This document shows positions 17,159 through 60,978 of a stretch of DNA of 64,000 nucleotides, piece by piece. This stretch comes from Eledone cirrhosa. Its lineage: Eukaryota. A program made the translations under genes and the position numbers. Location: positions 4,836,001-4,900,000 of the forward strand of contig OZ024752.1 of the NCBI GenBank assembly GCA_964016885.1. Reading direction: 5' to 3'. Each line of letters opens with the position of its first letter. Position 1 is the first letter of the stretch. Below the pieces are notes generated by a model that was not told the DNA's origin, searched no databases, and saw nothing but the letters and a program-made list of their open reading frames with translations.

Positions 17159-18003
17159 ATTGGCAGTATCGGTAGAGGGTCGGACGCCATGCTTTGACGC
17201 ATAGTGTTACGGCCCTTGCCATTCTGAGTTCAAATCCCGCCGAGGTTAACTTTGCCTTTCATCCTTACGGGGTCGATAAAACAAAGTACCAGTAATCTAC
17301 TAGGTAATTGCTGGCCTTGTGCCAAAAGTAGAAACAATTATTTATTTATATATATTTTTATTAATTATTTATGAACCCAGAAAGGAGGAAAGGTAAAATG
17401 AACCTGAGGTTTGAACTCAGAATGTAAAGGGATGTAACTAAATATAGCAAGGCTTTTCCTTTAACAACTCTACTGATTCTACAAATATATGTGAGGGGAA
17501 TTAGCTCAGATGGTAGAGTGCTTGCTTTGCATGTGAGAAGTATCGGGATTGATGTCGGATTCTCCAAGTGTTAAGTTTCCTGTAGTGCACCTGAACGCTG
17601 TACCATTATTACGGATTGCAGGGCGGTCGTTTGGCAGTATCGGTGGAGGGTCGGACGCCATGCTTTGCAGCGAAAAGTTACGGCCCTTTACGATCTGTGT
17701 TCAAATCCCGTCGAGGTTAACTTTGCCTTTCATCCTTACGGCGTCGATAAAATAAAGTACCAGTAATACACTGGGTAATTGCTGGCCTTGTGCCAAAAGT
17801 AGAAACAATTATTATTACAGATTGGCAGTATCAGTAGAGCGTCAGACACCATGCTTTGCGGCATAGAGTTATGGCCCTTTACGTTCTGAGTTCAAATCCC
17901 ACTGAGGTTAGATTTACCTTTCATCCTTACAGGGTTGATAAAATAAAGTACCAGTAATGCACTGGGGTTATTGCTGGCCTTGTGCCAAAAGTAGAAACAA
18001 TTA
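17159..18003 (+). mobile_element. Cluster of three SINE family A copies (17159-17340, 17620-17812, 17820-18003)
   Basis: Direct similarity to 9552-9740. Confidence 0.85.
17495..17566 (+). tRNA. tRNA-Ala(TGC)-like sequence, probably a pseudogene or SINE head
   Basis: GGGGAATTAGCTCAGATGGTAGAGTGCTTGCTTTGCATGTGAGAAGTATCGGGATTGATGTCGGATTCTCCA: acceptor, D and anticodon stems pair, anticodon TGC, G3:U70 present; the T arm is 1 nt short and mispaired. Confidence 0.75.
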
Positions 18004-19265: not shown

Positions 19266-19570
19266 ATATTTAATTTGTTGGTAATTCAACAAATATAAAT
19301 GTTTATAACTGATTCAAAGCACTCCACAAATTTTCTGGAGTATAATATTCAATGATATTAAATAAATGGAAATTATATTTATAAAACCATATTTATTCTA
19401 TTATATAACTTGAACTGTTAAGATCCTATTCCTGGTTATGTCAATATTTATAAAACAAACTTTGTATTTTATCTGAAGAGAGCGTACCAAATTTTGGTAC
19501 CCTTGAAATATATATAATAGAATAAATATGGTTTTATAAATATAGTTTCCATTTATTTAATATCATTGAG
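19266..19570 (+). mobile_element. Non-coding Penelope-like pseudo-LTR insertion (inverted + direct pLTR)
   Basis: Matches both ends of the 55982-58868 element; about 59-bp inverted repeat 19349-19407/19511-19569 around a hammerhead. Confidence 0.75.
19465..19524 (+). ncRNA. Minimal type I hammerhead ribozyme (same family as 58763)
   Basis: tattttat-CTGAAGA-gagcgtaccaaattttggtaccctt-GAAA-tatata-TA-atagaata. Confidence 0.7.
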
Positions 19571-24154: not shown

Positions 24155-24745
24155 TATATATATATATATATATATACAGGGTGTTCCAAAAAAATGTATT
24201 CAGACTTCAACAGCATTCTAATAAATATTGCCTATACTGGTAATCAAAGTGTGTGTATATCTTTTGGGGATACCCTGTTTATATATTCAGACATATAAAA
24301 AGTTCGCTCCCTTCCACCTAAAATTGCCTCGGGAATGTTACCTTTTAATCAATTTTTGCTGTCTGAAGAAATCACAATATCTATTGTCATTGAAATATGT
24401 ATAACAGCCCAATTAATAAAGGACCCTAACATCGTCACCTTCACATTTTCCTCTTTATACACATTTAGGTTTGTTGGTTCACCACTGGCTAGAACTGGTC
24501 ATTCCGTATAGTCAACCATGATATAATAATAGGAAAAGCACTCAACGTTATGTAACTCACCCATCTTCGATGTTGAATCTTGTTGGTGGTGCGAGAACGG
24601 AGTTAATTATTATTGAGTAAAATGACAGGAGGCTAAACTGGCAACAGCTGGCCCTGACCGCCTTCAAGTCATAAACATTTTTCTCTGTGTTTTTAGCCTC
24701 TTGGATTGTGTTTACCATTATTCCATAACTAACTTTTATGCAATA

Positions 24746-45993: not shown

Positions 45994-46700
45994 ATGTTAC
46001 TAGTTAGTTGTTTGTTCTATGTGTGTGTGTTTTCATTTTGTCCTTAATTGTGAGTTGTGATGTTGCTATTCCATTCATATTAACTGTAAAACTAGAAACA
46101 TAGTATATAGCATAAGATGTACTGAGGGACAATGTAAAGATAAGAATATAATGTACATAGGTGAGACAGCTCGTAGCATAGGAGAACGATTAAATGAACA
46201 CTGGCGAGAACTCCAAGATAGAAAAGACTCATCAGTACTCCACCAACATGCTAAAATAGAACATAAGGGCAAATTAGAGAACATAGAAATAAAAATAGAA
46301 TCTACACACAGAAAAGACGCAATGTTTAGACAAATCACAGAGGCAATAAACATAAATGAACTCCAACCAAAATTGAATAGAAAACATGAATGGAACAGCA
46401 ACATCACAACTTACAATTAAGGACAAAATGAAAACACACACACATAGAACAAACAACTAACTAGTAACATATAAATAAAGAAATAAAAACACACACAGAC
46501 ACCCGGATATAACACATACGCAAAGTAAGTACACAACACACACAAAACCAAGATGGCGTAGGACAGAACAAAGGAGAGGCACAAAACAAAGAAAAGAATC
46601 CCCAGTCACTGAAGAGGTCACAGAATGTGTGACGAAAGAACTTTGACAATATATGAACAACCGTCCAGTTGTGGAACCAACCAACCAACCGGAAATTTAT
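45994..46700 (+). mobile_element. Penelope-like element 3' fragment (GIY-YIG) with inverted 5' duplication
   Basis: NCKTRNIVYSIRC...MYIGETARSIGERLNEH...RQITEAININELQPKLNRKHEW; about 45994-46078 is the reverse complement of about 46386-46470; hammerhead downstream. Confidence 0.85.
46605..46647 (+). ncRNA. Hammerhead ribozyme candidate downstream of a GIY-YIG ORF
   Basis: gtca-CTGAAGA-ggtcacagaatgtgtgac-GAAA-gaac-TT-tgac; a related degenerate copy sits near 53822-53860. Confidence 0.6.
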
Positions 46701-47715: not shown

Positions 47716-48209
47716 AAGTATTCATAAGCAAATTTGAACCTCAGTTAAAAATAGCAAAGATAGAAGAATATGTAGACATGTAATGGCTTGTCTCTACTTC
47801 AATTATTATATTTATCATTATTTTTGTGGCATTTTAACTGCTTGTTTCCTTTTTTAATTTTACACAAGCATCATATTACCTCACTAATCTTGATCTTTTG
47901 TTATCTCCTTATGAAAGCCAGAAACCTGAAATTTAACCCTCACAGCTTCTTCCTGTGTCTTCCTATGTCTGTCCATGTGTGTGCATAAATATATTTGAGT
48001 ATTATATGGTAAATGTTATATATTTGTAGATTATGTGTATCAAATGATATGTATATAAAATAATTTGTAATAATTAAGCAATGAAGCTGAGTGATGAGAT
48101 CATGACACTGGTTCTGTGGAATGACGTGGCCACTGTCACCATTGAAATATGTATCACAGCCTTATCAATAAAGGACTTTAACATCTACAACTACATCTCA
48201 TTCTCTTAT

Positions 48210-48293
<84 letters not shown>

Positions 48294-48598: not shown

Positions 48599-48643
48599 GT
48601 GACGAAACATAAGTCAATTGCATGAACTCATAATCCTTTATTT

Positions 48644-48699
48644 ACTGCTATATATATTTCGATGATAGCCATTGAATGGCTATGACCTCATCAGGCAGT
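48644..48699 (-). ncRNA. Minimal type I hammerhead ribozyme
   Basis: Minus strand actgc-CTGATGA-ggtcatagccat-tca-atggctatcatc-GAAA-tatata-TA-gcagt, followed by aataaa. Confidence 0.8.
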
Positions 48700-49336
48700 T
48701 AGTCAGTTCTTAGATATGCCAGCTCTGTGTTTATAGTGTTGATGGTATCAGAGCCTTGGGACATATACACACACACATATATATATATAGGATAAGAGAA
48801 TGGGAAGTAGTTGTAGCTGTTAAAGTCCTTTAGTGATATATATATGTTATGTATTTTCATAGAAAATGTAAAGGAAAGAAGAGTGTAATTATATATATAT
48901 ATATATTAATATATATATATATATGTATATATTTAGTTTCTACATTCTCTTTCTCCAAGTTGACCTGTTTTTCTGATTCAGCCTCATTCTTATTCTAATG
49001 TCACAAATAATGAGTCAATGTTGTAAAAGACTTAGTATTCACAACCATCTGTCTATTTAAACATATCTATCTAATTTTCTAATGAGTATAAAGTCTATCT
49101 AGCTTGATAGGTGATCAAGTTTTTGGTCAGTTTACTGAAGTTACTGTTGCAGATGGTTAGGTCATTTGCATCACATAACTCTAGAAGCTTTGATCTTTCC
49201 TCATTTTTTTATCCATTTTTATCCATTAGCTATTATCTACACCATGCCAGCATGGGAAAGTGGATATAAAAATGAAGATGAATAGGCTGTTACAAGTGTG
49301 GAAAAATAGATGTAAAAATGATGGATGATGATGATG

Positions 49337-49607: not shown

Positions 49608-49746
49608 AAAAACCCCGTATAACCATCCAGCCCAAAGATAAAGTTGTTGAAAAAGGTAAAAATGTTGAATTAGAATGCCGGGCACGAGGAGACCCTAAAC
49701 CAGTTATTACATGGCGGAGAGAAAAAGGCCAGCTTCCACCAGATCG
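49608..49746 (+). CDS. robo: Robo-like receptor exon, N-terminal half of Ig domain 3 (phase 1-2, 139 nt); absent from the ORF track
   Basis: ttttctttttcttttctag acceptor, cg|gtaaga donor. Reads EKPRITIQPKDKVVEKGKNVELECRARGDPKPVITWRREKGQLPPDR, in frame with the upstream exon; matches Robo Ig3 C.ARGDP.P.(V/I).WR..G.LP..R. Confidence 0.92.
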
Positions 49747-51110: not shown

Positions 51111-51822
51111 GATATTTGTGTATATATATTGAGAATGTGTGTGTGCAGGTGTATACATATTGAGAATGTATGTGCATGTGTATATATATTGAGAATGTAT
51201 GCGTGTCTCTCTATATATATATCAAGAATATGTGTGTGTGCATGTGTATATATATTGAGAATGTGTGTGTGTATATATATATATCAAGAATATGTGTGTG
51301 TGCATGTGTATATATAATGAGAATGTATGTGTGTATTGAGAATGTATGTGTATGTGCATCATCATCATACGTCTATCTTCCACGCGAGCATGGGTTAGAT
51401 GGGAATTGTTCCATTTGAGGTAAGATTGATTGGGTGACCATGTCTCACTCGTATAGGACTATCTGGCAGGTTTTCTACAGTTAGATGCCCTTCCTAACAC
51501 ACACACATATATATATATATATTGAGAATGTATGTGTGTGTGTATTGTGAATGTATGTGTGTGTGTGTGCATGTATATATATTTGTAATAAATATTTGCT
51601 CTACGGTTCTTATATATTTGATATATATTTATCCTTATCGAGCCCTCTTTGGATTTTAGTCTTCAAATTTATTATTATTACTATATATATATATATAAGG
51701 GTAAACATTGATGCAATTCAATTCAAGCACTCAACGTACTTTTTCCACATAGGAGTGACGGAGTAAATATCGAATAAGTAAAAGCGAAGTAGTTTCAGAT
51801 GTTCAAGTCCTTTAATAATAAT

Positions 51823-51896
51823 GCTGTGATATATATTTCAATGACGACACTGGCCACACTGTTCTGTGTGCGAGTGTCGTGACATCATCAGACAGC
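51823..51896 (-). ncRNA. Minimal type I hammerhead ribozyme (mirror copy of 52039-52112)
   Basis: Exact reverse complement of the + strand copy, in the other arm of the 51772-52163 palindrome. Confidence 0.85.
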
Positions 51897-52038
51897 TTGT
51901 TACATAATAAGGTTGTTTCCGAGGCAATCCAAATTGAATCGACATGGGAACGGATGAAAAACCCAAAAGCACGAACTTCATCCATTCCCATGTCGATTCA
52001 ATTTGGATTGCCTCGGAAACAACCTTATTATGTAACAA

Positions 52039-52112
52039 GCTGTCTGATGATGTCACGACACTCGCACACAGAACAGTGTGGCCAGTGTCGTCATTGAAAT
52101 ATATATCACAGC
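52039..52112 (+). ncRNA. Minimal type I hammerhead ribozyme
   Basis: gctgt-CTGATGA-(stem II incl. acgacact..cacac/gtgtg..agtgtcgt)-GAAA-tatata-TC-acagc: intact core, 5-bp stem I, palindromic stem III loop, AUC site. Confidence 0.85.
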
Positions 52113-52620
52113 ATTATTATTAAAGGACTTGAACATCTGAAACTACTTCGCTTTTACTTATTCTATATATATATATATATATATATATTAAGATAAGCAG
52201 AACAAGTAAAATTCAATCAATTTTTCAAAATACATTAAAAAATATAATATAAATATTTACCTCTTCTAGTGGCCCTTACTGATCAGTTTCGCTTTGTAAA
52301 ACCTCATAAATCCGATATATATATAAAGAATGTATGTGTGTGCATGTGTAAAATACACGTACACACACACACACACACACATACATTTATAGGACTGGTA
52401 TGCAAACAAGCTGCAGACACTTGTAAGATGTTTTGACAAAAAGTATAACAGTAACACATTGGAAGTGTAGCCATAAAACATTGACCATAAATGTGTCAAA
52501 GAAGCATGATCTGAAATCCAGTCATAAAGTAGAAAAAGAATACTAGCTCAAGTCTGGAAGTGATGTTTACTTTATAAATGCATATAACTTAATTAATCCT
52601 CAGATTATATGTGTATGTAT

Positions 52621-52970
52621 ATCATCATCATCATCATCATTTCCTTTTACGCCCTTTTTTCCCTGCTTGCAAGGGTGGGACGGGAACTGATTCTGGCTTG
52701 ATTTCTACAGCTGGATGCCCTTCCTAACACCACCAACCTCATTTACAGTGAGTACTGGGTGCTTTTTTGCCGTGGCACCTCCACGACCACTTTGCAGTGG
52801 AATGATAGGGACCCGAGTCCCAATCAACTCATTTCTACAGCTGAGTAAACTGGAGCAATGTGAAATAAAGTGCCTTGCTCAAGGAAACAACACATCACCT
52901 GGTCTGAGAATTGAACTCACAATCTTTCAATTGAAAGGCCAATGTTCTAACCACTAAGCCATGTGCCTCC
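52621..52970 (-). mobile_element. SINE family B
   Basis: Reverse complement of 43413-43753. Confidence 0.85.
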
Positions 52971-53762
52971 ATTCATATATATATATATATATATAGAGAG
53001 CCATCTTTCTTTATATAATAGGCTGAATGAATTGGTGGTGTATAACCTAATGAAACTTACGTACCTGTATATGTCACTGTTGTAACTAATTATATATCAT
53101 CAATTAATGTCCATCTTCCACATTAGCATGGGTTAGATGGGTTGCATCATGGTCTTTGTCATCATTTTTAAGTTGATTTTTTTCCAAGACTAGCATAGGC
53201 AGGATGAGGTTTGTTGAGGCAGTTTTCTACTGTTAAACCACCATCCTGATGCCAACTCTTACCTGCTTCTCTTTTTAAGTAAGGTACTGTTTTGCACATC
53301 AAACTTGTGTCACAATACTTTTCTTTATGCAGGTGATAAAGAAATTTCACTATTTGCACAAGGTTCTACAGGGTAGGATAGAACTGAATCAAGTTGCTTT
53401 TGAAGCAAACTAATTCATGGTCTTGGGATTCAACCAGATCCCTCTAATTAAACCACAGCTGTAGAGATCTCTCACTCTTTTGGCCATATACTGATATTTA
53501 TAAGTTATTTGTAATGTCGCTTCTTTCTTCCACTTAAACTAGAATATATATATATATATCATCTCCCTATTTTCCTTCGGCTGTAACATTTTTCGAAATA
53601 TTTACTTCTGCATCCAAAGATTGATTTATTTAGTTTCAGAAGATACCGTTAAGCAGCGATTCTTTGCTTAAACTTTAATCTCTTCTTATAATAAATATTT
53701 GCTCTATGGGTTTATATATATATATATATATATAATCCTTATCGAGCCTTCACATTTATTAT

Positions 53763-55340: not shown

Positions 55341-57020
55341 TATATGTATATATGTGTGTATGTATATATAGCTACACTAATTGAACGATGGACTTTTTAA
55401 AACAAAGTTATACCTGCATCTCTACTTATGTGTGTGGGGGGTGTATATATATGTATATATATATGGGAGATACAGTTTCAATTCCTCATAGCAGCCAATG
55501 GCAACTTCTTTTGCCATCTTTAAGGGTCTTCACCCTATTTTCTAACATCTCCACATATGAGCACACCACTTTATTTATATGTGTGTGGCTGTAAAACTGA
55601 TGATAGTGCTATATTGTTAATCAACAATATATTTACATAGCAACTTATTCCCTGCACAATAGAGAAGTAACTTGACCAGTTTCTATACAGACCTCTTATT
55701 CATTACAAATACTGGGGAAGACCTCCATTGCAACTCCTTTAACAATGTTATCTGACCAATGGGGATTAACAAGAAAATTGACTATATTCAATATCTCCAA
55801 CAGTTCATTCATATCTTTGACACCTGAATGCTTGCACAGAACAAAGAAACTACTCACAAATAACTTTCGACCAAATCATCCGCTTTGAATGTATAACTAA
55901 ACTCGCATGTATTGTGTACTTTTACTCCCAAATGGGCTGGGCTGCATATATATATATATATATATATATATAAGTAGAAGGGATATTTAATTTGTTGGAA
56001 ATTCAACAAATATAAATGTTTATAACTGATTCAGAGCACTTGACAGATTTCTGGAGTAAATATTAAATGATATTAAATAAATGGAAACTATTAATAGGAA
56101 AAGAAAATCCATAATACAATTCTTCAACCTTAACTTAGAAATAGAGAATAACTATAAAATCGTTAACTTTTTAGACGTAACATTAAACCTTAGGCTTTAT
56201 TATCCTTTCCATAAAATTAATGAGAATCTAAATTACGTAAGTTTTAACTCTAATCATCCTAGATCTATTAAGAACACTATTGTCAATAGCGTCCAACAAC
56301 GAATTTCACGCATCTCTGCTAATAAAAATATTTTTGATGATAAGGCTGAATATTATAATGAAGCTTTAAATAGAGCAGGGTATTCGAATAAAATTAAATA
56401 TATTGACAACAATAACATGGAAAAATCACCCTAGTATTAATTATAATAATAATAAACAATTTAACTTAAACTCTAAAACAAACAAAAGAACTAGAACTAG
56501 AAATATTATTTGGTACTCACCCCCATTCTCATTAAGCATTAAAACACCTTTAGCAAAGATATTCTTTAAAGAACTAGACAAATGTTTTCCTAAAGCCCAC
56601 AGATACCACCCAATCTTTAACAGACATACTATAAAACTATCCTACTGAACATAGCACAAAATATAAATAGAATTAATAATAGAAACTTAAATTTAAACCC
56701 TAACCAAAATAACCATAATAGCAATAATAATATTTCTAGCAATATCCAACCTAATAGTACCGTTCTGAGCAACAACAACCCCGTAAAATGTAACTGTAGA
56801 ATCAAATCAAACTGCCCTTTACAAAACAAGTGTTTAGATAAAAACATAGTCTATAAATGCACAGTTAAAACTAGTGATAATATGTTTAACTATGTCAGTG
56901 CCACTTCTACAAAATTTAAAGATCGCTGGAATAACCACAATCACTTTTCAGAAGATCTGATGAAAAATCTTCTACTTCTCTTTCACATCTTATATGGAAC
57001 TTAAAAAGCAAGAATATAGT

Positions 57021-57363
57021 GGAGGCACATGGCTTAGTGGTTAGAGCATTGGCCTTGCAATCGAAAGGTTGTGAGTTCAATTCTCAGACCGGGTGATGTG
57101 TTGTTTCCTTGAGCAAGACACTTTATTTCACATTGCTCCAGTTTACTCAGCTGTAGAAATGAGATGATAGGACTGGGGTCCATATCATTCCACTGCAAAG
57201 TGGTCATGGAGGTACCACGGCAAAAAAGCACCCAGCACTCACTGTAAATGAGGTTGGTGTTAGGAAGGGCACCCAGCTGTAGAAATCAAGCCAGAATCAG
57301 TTCCCGTCCCACCCTTGCAAGCAGGGAAAAGCGGACGTAAAATGATGATGATGATGATGATGA
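57021..57363 (+). mobile_element. SINE family B inserted in the Penelope GIY-YIG region
   Basis: Near-identical to 43413-43753; removing it restores ...SKNI|DYSISW...; atag on both sides. Confidence 0.88.
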
Positions 57364-58762
57364 TAGACTATTCAATATCTTGGAAAACGATTTCGAAAGC
57401 ACCTGTGTACCGAAACATGGCTTTATCAAAATTTTGTAAATTGTGTATTGAAGAAATTTATATAATTAACTGTCAAAACTCTATTAATCTCAGAGCAGAA
57501 TTATTTAATTCTTGCAGACATCGCCAAAATTCTACATTCAGAACTATGTGTAACTTATAATATTCCTATAAATCTTCAAAATGATCCTATCTTTTTTTTT
57601 TTTTTTAATATTTTTAATATATTTATTTACGCTTTAATTTATATTTTTAATTATCGTGTCTATACTCTGCCTTTCATAGGTTATAGATTCCATACACTGG
57701 TGGTTTTTCCCTGTTTTATTGATAAAATCATAATATCTCTAATATCTGTAGTACTTTCACCTTCAGCAAAAATTTCTTATAATATATATATATATATTTA
57801 TTTATATATATATATGTGTATAGATATTTATGTATATCTATATAACTTTAATTTTAATTTTTTAATCTTTTAATTTTTTTATTTTTTTTATTTTTTAATT
57901 CTTTATTTTTCCAATGACACCCTCTAAAGCTATTTTTTTAAACATAGATTAATAACCATTAACTGATTTTAGAAAATGTATCCTATTCAAGACGATGTTT
58001 AAACATTCATATTTCTTTCAACTAAATAATTAATTAATCTCACACTAACGATTAACAAATAAAATCGGAGTTATCTTTCCTTTTAATCATATAACTTATT
58101 ATACCTAACTGTTAATTTTATTTAAAACATTCTCAGTGCTGAACAAGTTATCCAAATATATAAATTCATAATTTTAACTATTTATTTACATAAAATACAA
58201 AATCAACATCCCTCGTAACTCATATTAAGAACAACCACCCAAAACTTGAACTACTTATTTATTTATCTACATAAAACACATAATCAACACCCTCGTAACG
58301 CATATTATAAACAACTAATAATTGCAAATTATCTTTTTAATAAAAATACATATGCTATTATTAAAATATATATAGATATTTATATATTTAACCCACTACA
58401 ATATTATAATAAGATAAATACTTACAAACATAATTCTCCATATAATTATAGGTAAATATTCGAATTTTTCCCCCAAATTAACGTATATAAGTGGTCTTCT
58501 TCCTTTTTCCTTTTTCCTTCTTTTTCCTTTTTCTTTTTTTCTTTTTTTCTTTTTTTCTTTCTCTCTTATTATTATATATCTAAACTTTCCATAGCGTTTA
58601 AAATAACGGTTTTTCAATAATATAACTCAACCTTATTTACATATTCATTTTCATATTCATCCATAAGTTTGAAATATCCGTTCTTTAATCTCACTACCCA
58701 AAGAAAATTCAACTGATAAGGTATGGTTTCCTTGACTATGTCAAAATTTATAAAACACTGTA

Positions 58763-58824
58763 TATTTTATCTGATGAAAGCGTACCAAAGTTTTTGGTAC
58801 CCTTGAAATATATATAATAGAATA
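58763..58824 (+). ncRNA. Minimal type I hammerhead ribozyme in a Penelope-like pseudo-LTR
   Basis: tattttat-CTGATGA-aagcgtaccaaa..tttggtaccctt-GAAA-tatata-TA-atagaata; at the 3' end of the GIY-YIG element. Confidence 0.75.
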
Positions 58825-59273: not shown

Positions 59274-59401
59274 GTCTCATCTGTTGGATAATGGTAATTT
59301 ACTGATTGAAGAAGCAGAAGTTAGTGATGATGGCTTGTACATATGCCAGGCAGAAAATTCAGTTGGTGTATCAGAAGCTGTTGCAAAACTCACTGTGCAT
59401 G
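59274..59401 (+). CDS. robo: Robo-like receptor exon, C-terminal half of Ig domain 3 (phase 2-1, 128 nt)
   Basis: ttacag acceptor, g|gtaagt donor. SHLLDNGNLLIEEAEVSDDGLYICQAENSVGVSEAVAKLTVH completes the I-set domain (D.G.Y.C.AEN.VG); phase matches the previous exon (cg+g = Arg). Confidence 0.92.
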
Positions 59402-60978
59402 GTAAGTATTACTTGTATATGATATATATATTTATATATCATCATCATCATCGTTTAATGTCCATCTTCCATGCTAGCATGGGTTAGATAGGTTTGTCCC
59501 ACTTGAGGCAAGATTGGTTGAGTGACCACACTTCGCTTGTATAGAACTGTTTCTGGCTGGTTTTCTACAGCTGGATGCCCTTCCTAACGCCATATATATA
59601 TATACCGTTATAGAGGTATTTATTTACGCTTTAATTTATATTTTTAATTATCGTGTCTATACTCTGCCTTTCATAGGTTATAGATTCCATACACTGGTGG
59701 TTTTTCCCTGTTTTATTGATAACGCACTGTATCTCTCTCTAGTGTGTTACCTTTTCAACATTTGTATATATATATATGTGTGTGTGGGTGAGTTTGTATT
59801 TGCACACATGCACACATATATGGGTATTTGTATATACATATTTCTATGTATACATATGCATATATATGTCCATAAGAACATATTTTAGTATTATGATGGC
59901 TGCAACTCAATTTCGAGTAACGCCATCGCTTAATACTTAAGCATGAGCCTTACAGATGTGCCTTTTTAGTCCTGCTAGGGACTTGCCTATGGTCAGCAAT
60001 ACCATGCATCCCCAAAAATGTGACATATCAAGCGATACCTGTGCTTGAAGCTTTTTTAAGTGAGGAAAGACTTTGCATGGGGTCAATCCCTCTCTCTGAA
60101 CATTGAATGCATTTACCCCAATAGAAGAACATTGGATGGAAATGAAGTCACAGCTTTTATACCAGAGAGACTTTCTAGAGAGATGTCTTAATGAAGACTA
60201 GGAGCCTTTCGCTCCACCAAAAATTAAAAAATCCTTATTGGATGGTTGTTGATTCTCCTGAGTTCCCCTGCCCTTTAGTATCATATATATATATATACAC
60301 ACACACATACAAACATATATATACACACACTCACACAGATATATACACATATACATACATATAATTATTCCATTTACCAAAGGTTTCATGAAGAAACCTC
60401 TGTTGAGGTCGCCTGTCTTCGTATACACACACATATACATATATGTGTGTATGTGGATTGTTGATGGACATGAGAAAAAACATTCAATTCAAAAGTAAAG
60501 TTTAAATATTCAATTAATGTTATTAATTTTTCTCAAACACCAATTACCAGGTGCCCTGGGTTAAACCACACTGCAGTTTAATGATACTCAACTACATTGA
60601 AAATTATGTCTTTTCTTTCTTAGGTCTACATATGATAGTTTTCTCTAAGGATTATTTGAAAGCAAGCCTTGGTGTTATCCAATTATCTTGCTTGAGGTCT
60701 ACCCCTGGGTTTCTTGCCGGTCGGTTTTGCCCATAAAATTAGTTCAGTGATTCTTTCCTGAGACATTCTAACCACATGCCCATATTATCGGAATTGATTC
60801 TGATAAAGCTAGTCTAGGCTAGGTGGTGGTGTTAAACCAGGCAATGGATCAAGTCTACTACTACCCAAGTACAGACTGGTAAGATTTGAACTCAGTAGGA
60901 ATAAGACGATTCTACCGGTACTTGATTTTAGTGACCCTGAGTGGATAAAAGGCAAAATTGGCCTCAGCAGGGTTTGAA

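Follow-up and report, generated by a model that had tools for sequence, protein, structure and literature searches.

Insertions of endonuclease-positive Penelope-like elements (PLEs), so far as the available text of two descriptions goes (Craig et al. 2021, PMC8557442; Arkhipova et al. 2013, PMC3846280), consist of 5'-truncated copies and partial tandems at AT/TA-rich targets, in which the 5' end bears an inverted copy, only one of the ends has a tail, the inverted junctions are palindromic and the terminal repeat holds a hammerhead. The tail is 30-40 bp long (PMC8557442) and is optional or often one-sided in both accounts. The origin of the inverted repeats and tails is called undefined in PMC8557442, the source also of the idea that the tail is left by endonuclease resolution; in PMC3846280 palindromic head-to-head junctions are read as self-priming, proposed there for an antisense template. 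Minimal PLE hammerheads (Cervera and de la Pena 2014, PMC4209133, as far as excerpted) have a helix I of 4-5 bp, a long helix II, a short palindromic helix III and a highly conserved G10.1-C11.1 pair, and in Schistosoma opposite-strand hammerhead pairs lie 100-700 bp apart.

Purified Poseidon PAc of the green anole, an autonomous PLE protein that is predicted to dimerise, in vitro cuts both strands of AT-rich targets and extends them (Frangieh et al. 2024, PMC11167929). Its RT has two internal start sites, both downstream of the hammerhead and one on either side of the tail. Hammerhead cleavage is not needed and no start-site difference is seen between strands in bulk; the portions of PMC11167929 that were available do not tie the start sites to inverted insertions or to one site per strand. 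Non-LTR retrozymes (Cervera and de la Pena 2020, PMC7229834; Li et al., bioRxiv 10.64898/2026.07.22.740005; both as available in part) are non-coding units of low GC with a type I hammerhead, found as tandem arrays and dispersed copies, and are taken to be non-autonomous PLE derivatives that PLEs are proposed to move. Their units are typically ~300 bp (51-972 bp listed, in a period search of at most 1,000), and cleavage was seen in one of nine dimers in the bioRxiv study.

The locus described here lies in 64,000 nucleotides of Eledone cirrhosa DNA (the window: GCA_964016885.1, contig OZ024752.1, positions 4,836,001 to 4,900,000, forward strand; coordinates below count from its first letter) in a genome of ~3.0 Gb. 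The original prediction, drawn from the sequence alone, was of a 392-bp palindrome at 51772..52163 within a Robo intron and about 2 kb after an exon, and in these respects it was borne out. Self-alignment returns reverse-complement arms of 187 bp with an 18-nt loop and a single mismatch at the pair 51951/51984, where the family consensus letter at 51984 is G and two other copies share the A of the window, which would fit CpG decay. The exon at 34842-35126 matches Robo1/2 best, the half-exons of an Ig domain flank the element, and the latter begins ~1.95 kb into the intron. The features are as follows.

49610..49746, plus strand: Robo exon before the host intron, coding for the first half of an Ig domain (similarity to Robo)
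59275..59403, plus strand: next Robo exon, second half of the same Ig domain, start approximate (similarity to Robo)
51694..52163, no strand: whole insertion, ~470 bp in a (TA)n run; left to right an inverted B-ended arm, the hairpin junction and a direct A-ended arm (mapped onto the natural tandem copy L019, with flanks)
51694..51771, minus strand: tail, 78 nt between site A and site B, on the left arm only (mapped on L019)
51772..51958, minus strand: left palindrome arm (reverse-complement alignment)
51823..51896, minus strand: left-arm type I hammerhead motif, in antisense to Robo, with a cut predicted after 51828 (descriptor scan)
51946..51989, no strand: the family's own hairpin, here the arm junction; 13-bp stem 51946-51958 / 51977-51989 and 18-nt loop
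51977..52163, plus strand: right arm, ending at site A beside (TA)n (reverse-complement alignment, mapping on L019)
52039..52112, plus strand: right-arm type I hammerhead motif, in the sense of the Robo pre-mRNA, with its core at 52044-52050 and 52096-52099 and a cut predicted after 52107 (descriptor scan)
48075..48219, plus strand: copy of an older subfamily, decayed and truncated at its 5' side, with an A end and a G as third core base (family profile)

The element and the palindrome had been equated, and the palindrome stands but the bounds do not: the left arm continues for 78 nt in family sequence and the right arm lacks those 78 nt, so the insert is placed at 51694-52163. The resemblance of site B to the TA target leaves the left edge of the insert uncertain by ~4 nt, and any target site duplication is masked within (TA)n. 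Similarly, the spacer has its predicted length of 18 but is not neutral, being the loop of a hairpin that is native to the family and present in every full unit. In the window the loop has the orientation of the right (A) arm and the tail belongs to the left one; neither arm therefore contains the other.

The prediction of a repeat family also holds. In the genome, 1,557 sites match a 27-mer from the arm exactly (a control has 0), and the core pattern has 2,177 matches spread across subfamilies. Among the best 40 candidates scored with the whole arm, full-length copies are 98-100% identical, with one at 94%. By extrapolation, the genome likely holds ~1,250 insertions, several hundred of them inverted. 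Family membership of the palindrome is thus upheld, but its status as the mobile unit is not: the palindrome, whose junctions vary between copies, is taken to be made at insertion, and the unit is about 1.27-1.36 kb (the period of L019 is 1,270 nt, and tandem copies are 1,270-1,364 nt) with a GC content of 39%. Tandem copies and arrays exist (L019, L085), and 132 exact read-through junctions are scattered genome-wide; the window copy itself is not tandem. The unit has no credible coding sequence, as anticipated: the longest stop-free frame in L019 is 110 codons and runs through a TA repeat. Copies are targeted to (TA)n, as seen in the flanks of both A and B ends, and stop at two fixed 3' places, i.e. 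site A, 56 nt past the predicted cut, and site B, 78 nt beyond A.

Older relatives share this plan. The decayed solo copy predicted near 48086 is confirmed (82% over 84 nt, with G replacing core C3), and more decayed pieces of the same superfamily lie at 24302-24455 (+) and 48782-48838 (-). An older family that is ~70% alike (L248-L277) keeps both end motifs with a tail of ~120 nt, and the hammerhead core in most copies listed; its listed inverted partners all stop at or before the A-equivalent site.

The description of the element as young, non-autonomous, retrozyme-like and Penelope-derived is supported by the near-identical copies, the lack of a coding frame, the hammerhead and the PLE-like insertion anatomy. 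Like retrozymes, the family is non-coding and low in GC and occurs both as dispersed copies and in tandem, every tandem unit carrying a type I hammerhead motif; it differs in that most copies are truncated or inverted and in unit size, which is outside the range given above. It shares with the PLE insertions of PMC8557442 and PMC3846280 all the marks listed at the outset; however, unlike those known PLEs and the autonomous PAc, the unit has no RT and GIY-YIG frame (PLE frames occur elsewhere in the genome), and its tail of 78 nt, or ~120 nt in the older relative, exceeds the published 30-40 bp, a difference that counts against the one-step model given below. The best reading of its class is a non-autonomous Penelope-like (retrozyme-type) element whose halves in the window are separately primed cDNAs joined at an internal hairpin.

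The arrangement of the ends was determined in an unbiased sample, the DNA around the first 100 matches of the 27-mer on C1, which comprises 80 insertions. Forty-six of these are inverted, 41 with both ends classed and five with one end left unclassed; the remainder are 14 single A ends, 15 single B ends and five that run past the fetched DNA. All 41 classed pairs join an A end to a B end (23 A|B and 18 B|A), with neither an AA nor a BB pair, an outcome whose probability under a free choice of ends at even odds is 0.5^41. A larger set, drawn from 202 family loci, is not unbiased and leaves out loci whose outer end was cut off or lay beyond the mapped stretch; it gives 79 distinct inverted insertions: 72 A+B, one B+B, no A+A and six with one end elsewhere. 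Both arms hold the core motif in 40 of these 79. In the PLEs of PMC8557442 and PMC3846280, as far as described in the available text, the tail is optional or often one-sided, whereas here one-sidedness is near-strict (72 of 73 pairs of classed ends). The sole B+B insertion (L312 2829-6125) belongs to an older subfamily and counts against a one-step A+B model. It is likely that the two fixed arm ends reflect how Penelope-type elements are copied.

The reading that we prefer, and consider probable, is that the palindrome arose in a one-step insertion of a young non-coding repeat, primed at both cut ends by a borrowed Penelope-type RT/endonuclease. The enzyme would cut the TA repeat and both cut ends would be primed on the element RNA, each nicked target strand starting a cDNA, one at A and one at B, from the same RNA or source. 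The two cDNAs would then extend toward each other and anneal at complementary ends, here presumably the 13-bp stem of the family hairpin. The template could be a multimer, a circle, or one unit copied twice or with strand displacement; insertions of more than a unit fit a circle or a multimer alike, and repeated passes within one arm are 89-98% alike. A further reading, to which we give slightly better than an even chance, is that Penelope-type enzymes in general insert by two-site twin priming, a dimer priming both nicked strands on one RNA with one subunit always at A and the other always at B.

L1 twin priming also produces, from two target-primed cDNAs, an inverted 5' portion that is joined through microhomology, but its second start site varies and the two portions are not known to overlap. 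Here, in contrast, each start lies at a fixed site and the two arms are copies of a common stretch. Sites A and B resemble the two RT start sites of PAc (PMC11167929, as available in part), which likewise lie downstream of the hammerhead and bracket the tail. These start sites, and the cutting and extension of both strands by PAc, favour the one-step model; the lack of a start-site difference between strands in bulk counts against it.

The arms and their junctions were compared in 55 inverted insertions, the 41 from the sample and 14 of the best-scoring copies. In 35 of 38 comparable pairs an arm differs less from its partner than from other copies (median 2.4% vs 5.7%), and private variants are common to both arms in nine of the 55; the arms thus appear to derive mostly from one template, or to have been homogenised later by gene conversion. 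Of 53 measurable junctions, 37 are flush and 16 have unassigned bases between the arms, the latter counting against a one-step model. Among flush junctions 32 of 37 overlap by at least 1 nt vs 45% for random joins, the long hairpin overlaps being inflated by the method. The hairpin junction of the window recurs, so that it is found at 10 places in all and in different subfamily variants, with the loop on the A arm in five and on the B arm in five. Arm ends are just mildly commoner at the hairpin than in neighbouring stretches, and no general stall is therefore claimed.

An alternative explanation is self-priming, in which a strand folds back at the internal palindrome and copies itself, the tail being left by endonuclease resolution. 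The exact coincidence of the window junction with the family hairpin at recurrent places, the near-identity of the arms of a pair, and the five hairpin junctions with the loop on the B arm, obtainable by folding of the B strand, are all features that such a route would produce. However, a fold-back copy must nest within its template, so that one arm should be a subset of the other, and in the window copy tail and loop belong to different arms. In the 41 sampled pairs the A arm reaches further 5' in 18, the B arm in 17, and six are level; the A arm is too short to hold the tail in 34. Because the arms are not regularly nested, and with the majority of junctions lying away from the hairpin, fold-back is not the general route, and we regard it as unlikely.

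A second alternative is that two independent insertions, or two unrelated RNAs, came together in opposite orientation within a single TA run. Many insertions are indeed drawn to TA runs, three of the 38 comparable pairs have arms no closer than the median outsider, and the arms of one large array differ by 82-95 substitutions per unit. The latter is a 12-kb inverted family insertion (G000 C1:130.882-130.894 Mb, L308-L310), with an A end on the left and a B end on the right. One of its arms has three like units and the other alternating units, with 2 and 13 differences between alternates and ~72 between neighbours. Its two arms derive from different variants, which tells against a one-step model. 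But separate events predict that about half of all pairs should be AA or BB, given single ends in the ratio 14 A : 15 B, where none is seen in 41, and the arms abut with no TA in between. Separate events are thus very unlikely as the origin of the palindromes, and one-step priming at both cut ends is retained.

Two further observations on family ends and neighbours were given mechanistic readings that did not survive control DNA. An abundant SINE-like repeat (so labelled by look) follows the predicted cut by 5 nt in 22 of 118 arms, which might suggest template switching at the cleavage site; since the SINE has 105,608 matches and precedes 4 of 34 ATT runs in control DNA this was ruled out, and its independent entry, many times over, at family position 131 is explained by the ATT target. 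Similarly, (TC)n runs follow 14 of 99 A ends and none of 90 B ends, but a telomerase-like addition of repeats was rejected as control TA runs with a TC edge show (TC)n more often (20 of 58 vs 14 of 85).

A linked GIY-YIG/RT reading frame, which had been suggested as something to look for, was not found: in 90 of the 150 scored loci (10,597 candidates) none has the terminal repeat of the family as its own end, and one nested family copy is present at a GIY-YIG locus (L147). Nor was an autonomous partner found beside the older relatives, or with the older relative or two window relatives as queries, and PLE fragments near some copies show no fixed link to the family. With no partner among the 90 loci, which tells against the one-step model, the claim of mobilisation by a PLE rests on insertion anatomy. 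Long PLE frames of 938, 844 and 1,096 codons from stop to stop were seen at L158, L159 and L160, the first with RT followed by GIY-YIG in Pfam; L158 belongs to a young family, as its five other copies are ~97% alike. About 1.1 kb downstream of a long PLE frame is a motif that by eye resembles the U3-A8 minimal hammerhead depicted in the available part of PMC4209133.

Each arm had been predicted to carry an intact type I hammerhead with, in the right arm, a cut after 52107. The core and the helices are present in both arms: helix I, of 5 bp, precedes CUGAUGA, the helix II region spans 45 nt before GAAA, and a palindromic helix III of 2 bp is followed by UC. A descriptor scan finds CUGANGA / GAAA / UH in type I order in both and places the cuts where listed above. 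"Intact" is nevertheless too strong, because a U.U takes the place of the G10.1-C11.1 pair at the core end of helix II, with two pairs and then a C.C mismatch after it, and the Rfam hammerhead models give no match in the window at the gathering score nor at E<=5. The overall form is that of the minimal PLE hammerheads of PMC4209133, differing, as far as the available text tells, in this U.U, or G.U in some relatives, where G10.1-C11.1 is highly conserved. In the family at large the position has no standard pair in 20 of 23 distinct rows and G.U in three, the 3' letter being fixed by the search pattern. Helix I is paired in 96% of cells, which is likewise largely fixed by the search pattern. 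Helix II covaries: 7 of 18 pairs are changed on both sides, a value reached by 1 of 500 shuffles and above slid controls, in an alignment of 24 copies (23 distinct) whose relatedness, and whose structure drawn from the window copy, favour the result. On the basis of this covariation and of the core kept in the older family, the motif was likely maintained by selection in the source lineage.

The role proposed for the window copy was a self-silencing switch used by the host, in which the hairpin would keep the ribozyme inactive in Robo pre-mRNA, to be released by editing or unwinding. In its favour, transcription of the intron runs through the element, the motif of the right arm has the sense orientation of Robo, and the covariation of helix II extends across subfamilies; yet the arrangement is the usual insertion product of the family, about half of all insertions being inverted, and in the folding model a fold that enforces helices I and II lies 107.7 kcal/mol above the duplex. 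The antisense arm would moreover be made first, so that the ribozyme arm would zip into the 187-bp duplex while emerging and stay off; the ribozyme is consequently read as off rather than switchable. With a helix III of 2 bp, the motif is of a kind that depends on dimers and cleaves weakly in vitro (PMC4209133), and its nearest partner on the same strand is decayed. Editing that opened the duplex would also strike the core adenosines, the copy is very young, and the window has 18 other inverted alignments of at least 120 bp. The switch is thus highly improbable; the window copy is likely a dead passenger, and it is a fair prediction that the hairpin would be present as double-stranded RNA in Robo pre-mRNA.

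That the palindrome is an assembly or library fold-back artefact is barely credible, given the defined 78-nt tail on one side, the distinct flanks, the one site that differs between the arms, the identical junction at nine other places in other variants and both polarities, and the one end rule obeyed by 79 distinct inverted insertions, to be set against the lack of a junction-bridging contig among those listed from public runs, where bridging is not expected of short contigs of a high-copy repeat. These contigs and the RAD reads at the locus, being short pieces of this kind, neither confirm nor refute the insert; in a run from another organism (X5) the flanks are covered and the element is not at 92%, a lack of cover that carries no weight. 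Among the public runs listed as containing the stretch none is an RNA run, a negative that bears neither way on expression.

Inverted copies with a one-sided tail, opposite-strand hammerhead pairs and two RT start sites are already published, as the available parts of the sources cited above attest. In the openly available literature covered on PLE twin or two-site priming, no statement of a strict A+B rule or of a two-site priming model was found. If true, two-site twin priming would account by a single rule for inverted copies, the one-sided tail and palindromic junctions, and hundreds of datable insertions would record it; near-strict A+B pairing of non-nested arms makes a sharp prediction for the PAc in vitro system (PMC11167929, as available in part). 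The window copy is ordinary and the family of modest importance, the end rule being of value as a test of PLE insertion. The family in addition extends retrozyme-type units to ~1.3 kb, and offers a hammerhead variant that lacks the G10.1-C11.1 pair, is kept across subfamilies and is cheap to assay. Its hundreds of hairpins per genome, if transcribed, would be a large source of double-stranded RNA, a trait of the family and not of Robo.

Several other elements were seen in the window. The Robo intron holds a 355-bp inverted pair of another repeat (52617-52971 with 57020-57368, 93%). A bacterial promoter scan gave hits at chance level, its model being inapplicable to this DNA, and a weak Rfam tRNA match (31.7 bits, 17495-17566, +) is probably a pseudogene or a SINE head. 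A second hammerhead family is represented at 48602-48767 (-), with copies of a fixed length of ~165 nt in (TA)n and a canonical G-C at helix II; of its 28 candidates in the genome, mostly 92-100% alike, two are inverted pairs, one of them with a longer arm. Further type I hammerhead-like motifs lie at 19473-19524 (+), 58771-58824 (+) and 46602-46660 (+), the last of which resembles motifs beside GIY-YIG frames in L137 and L170.
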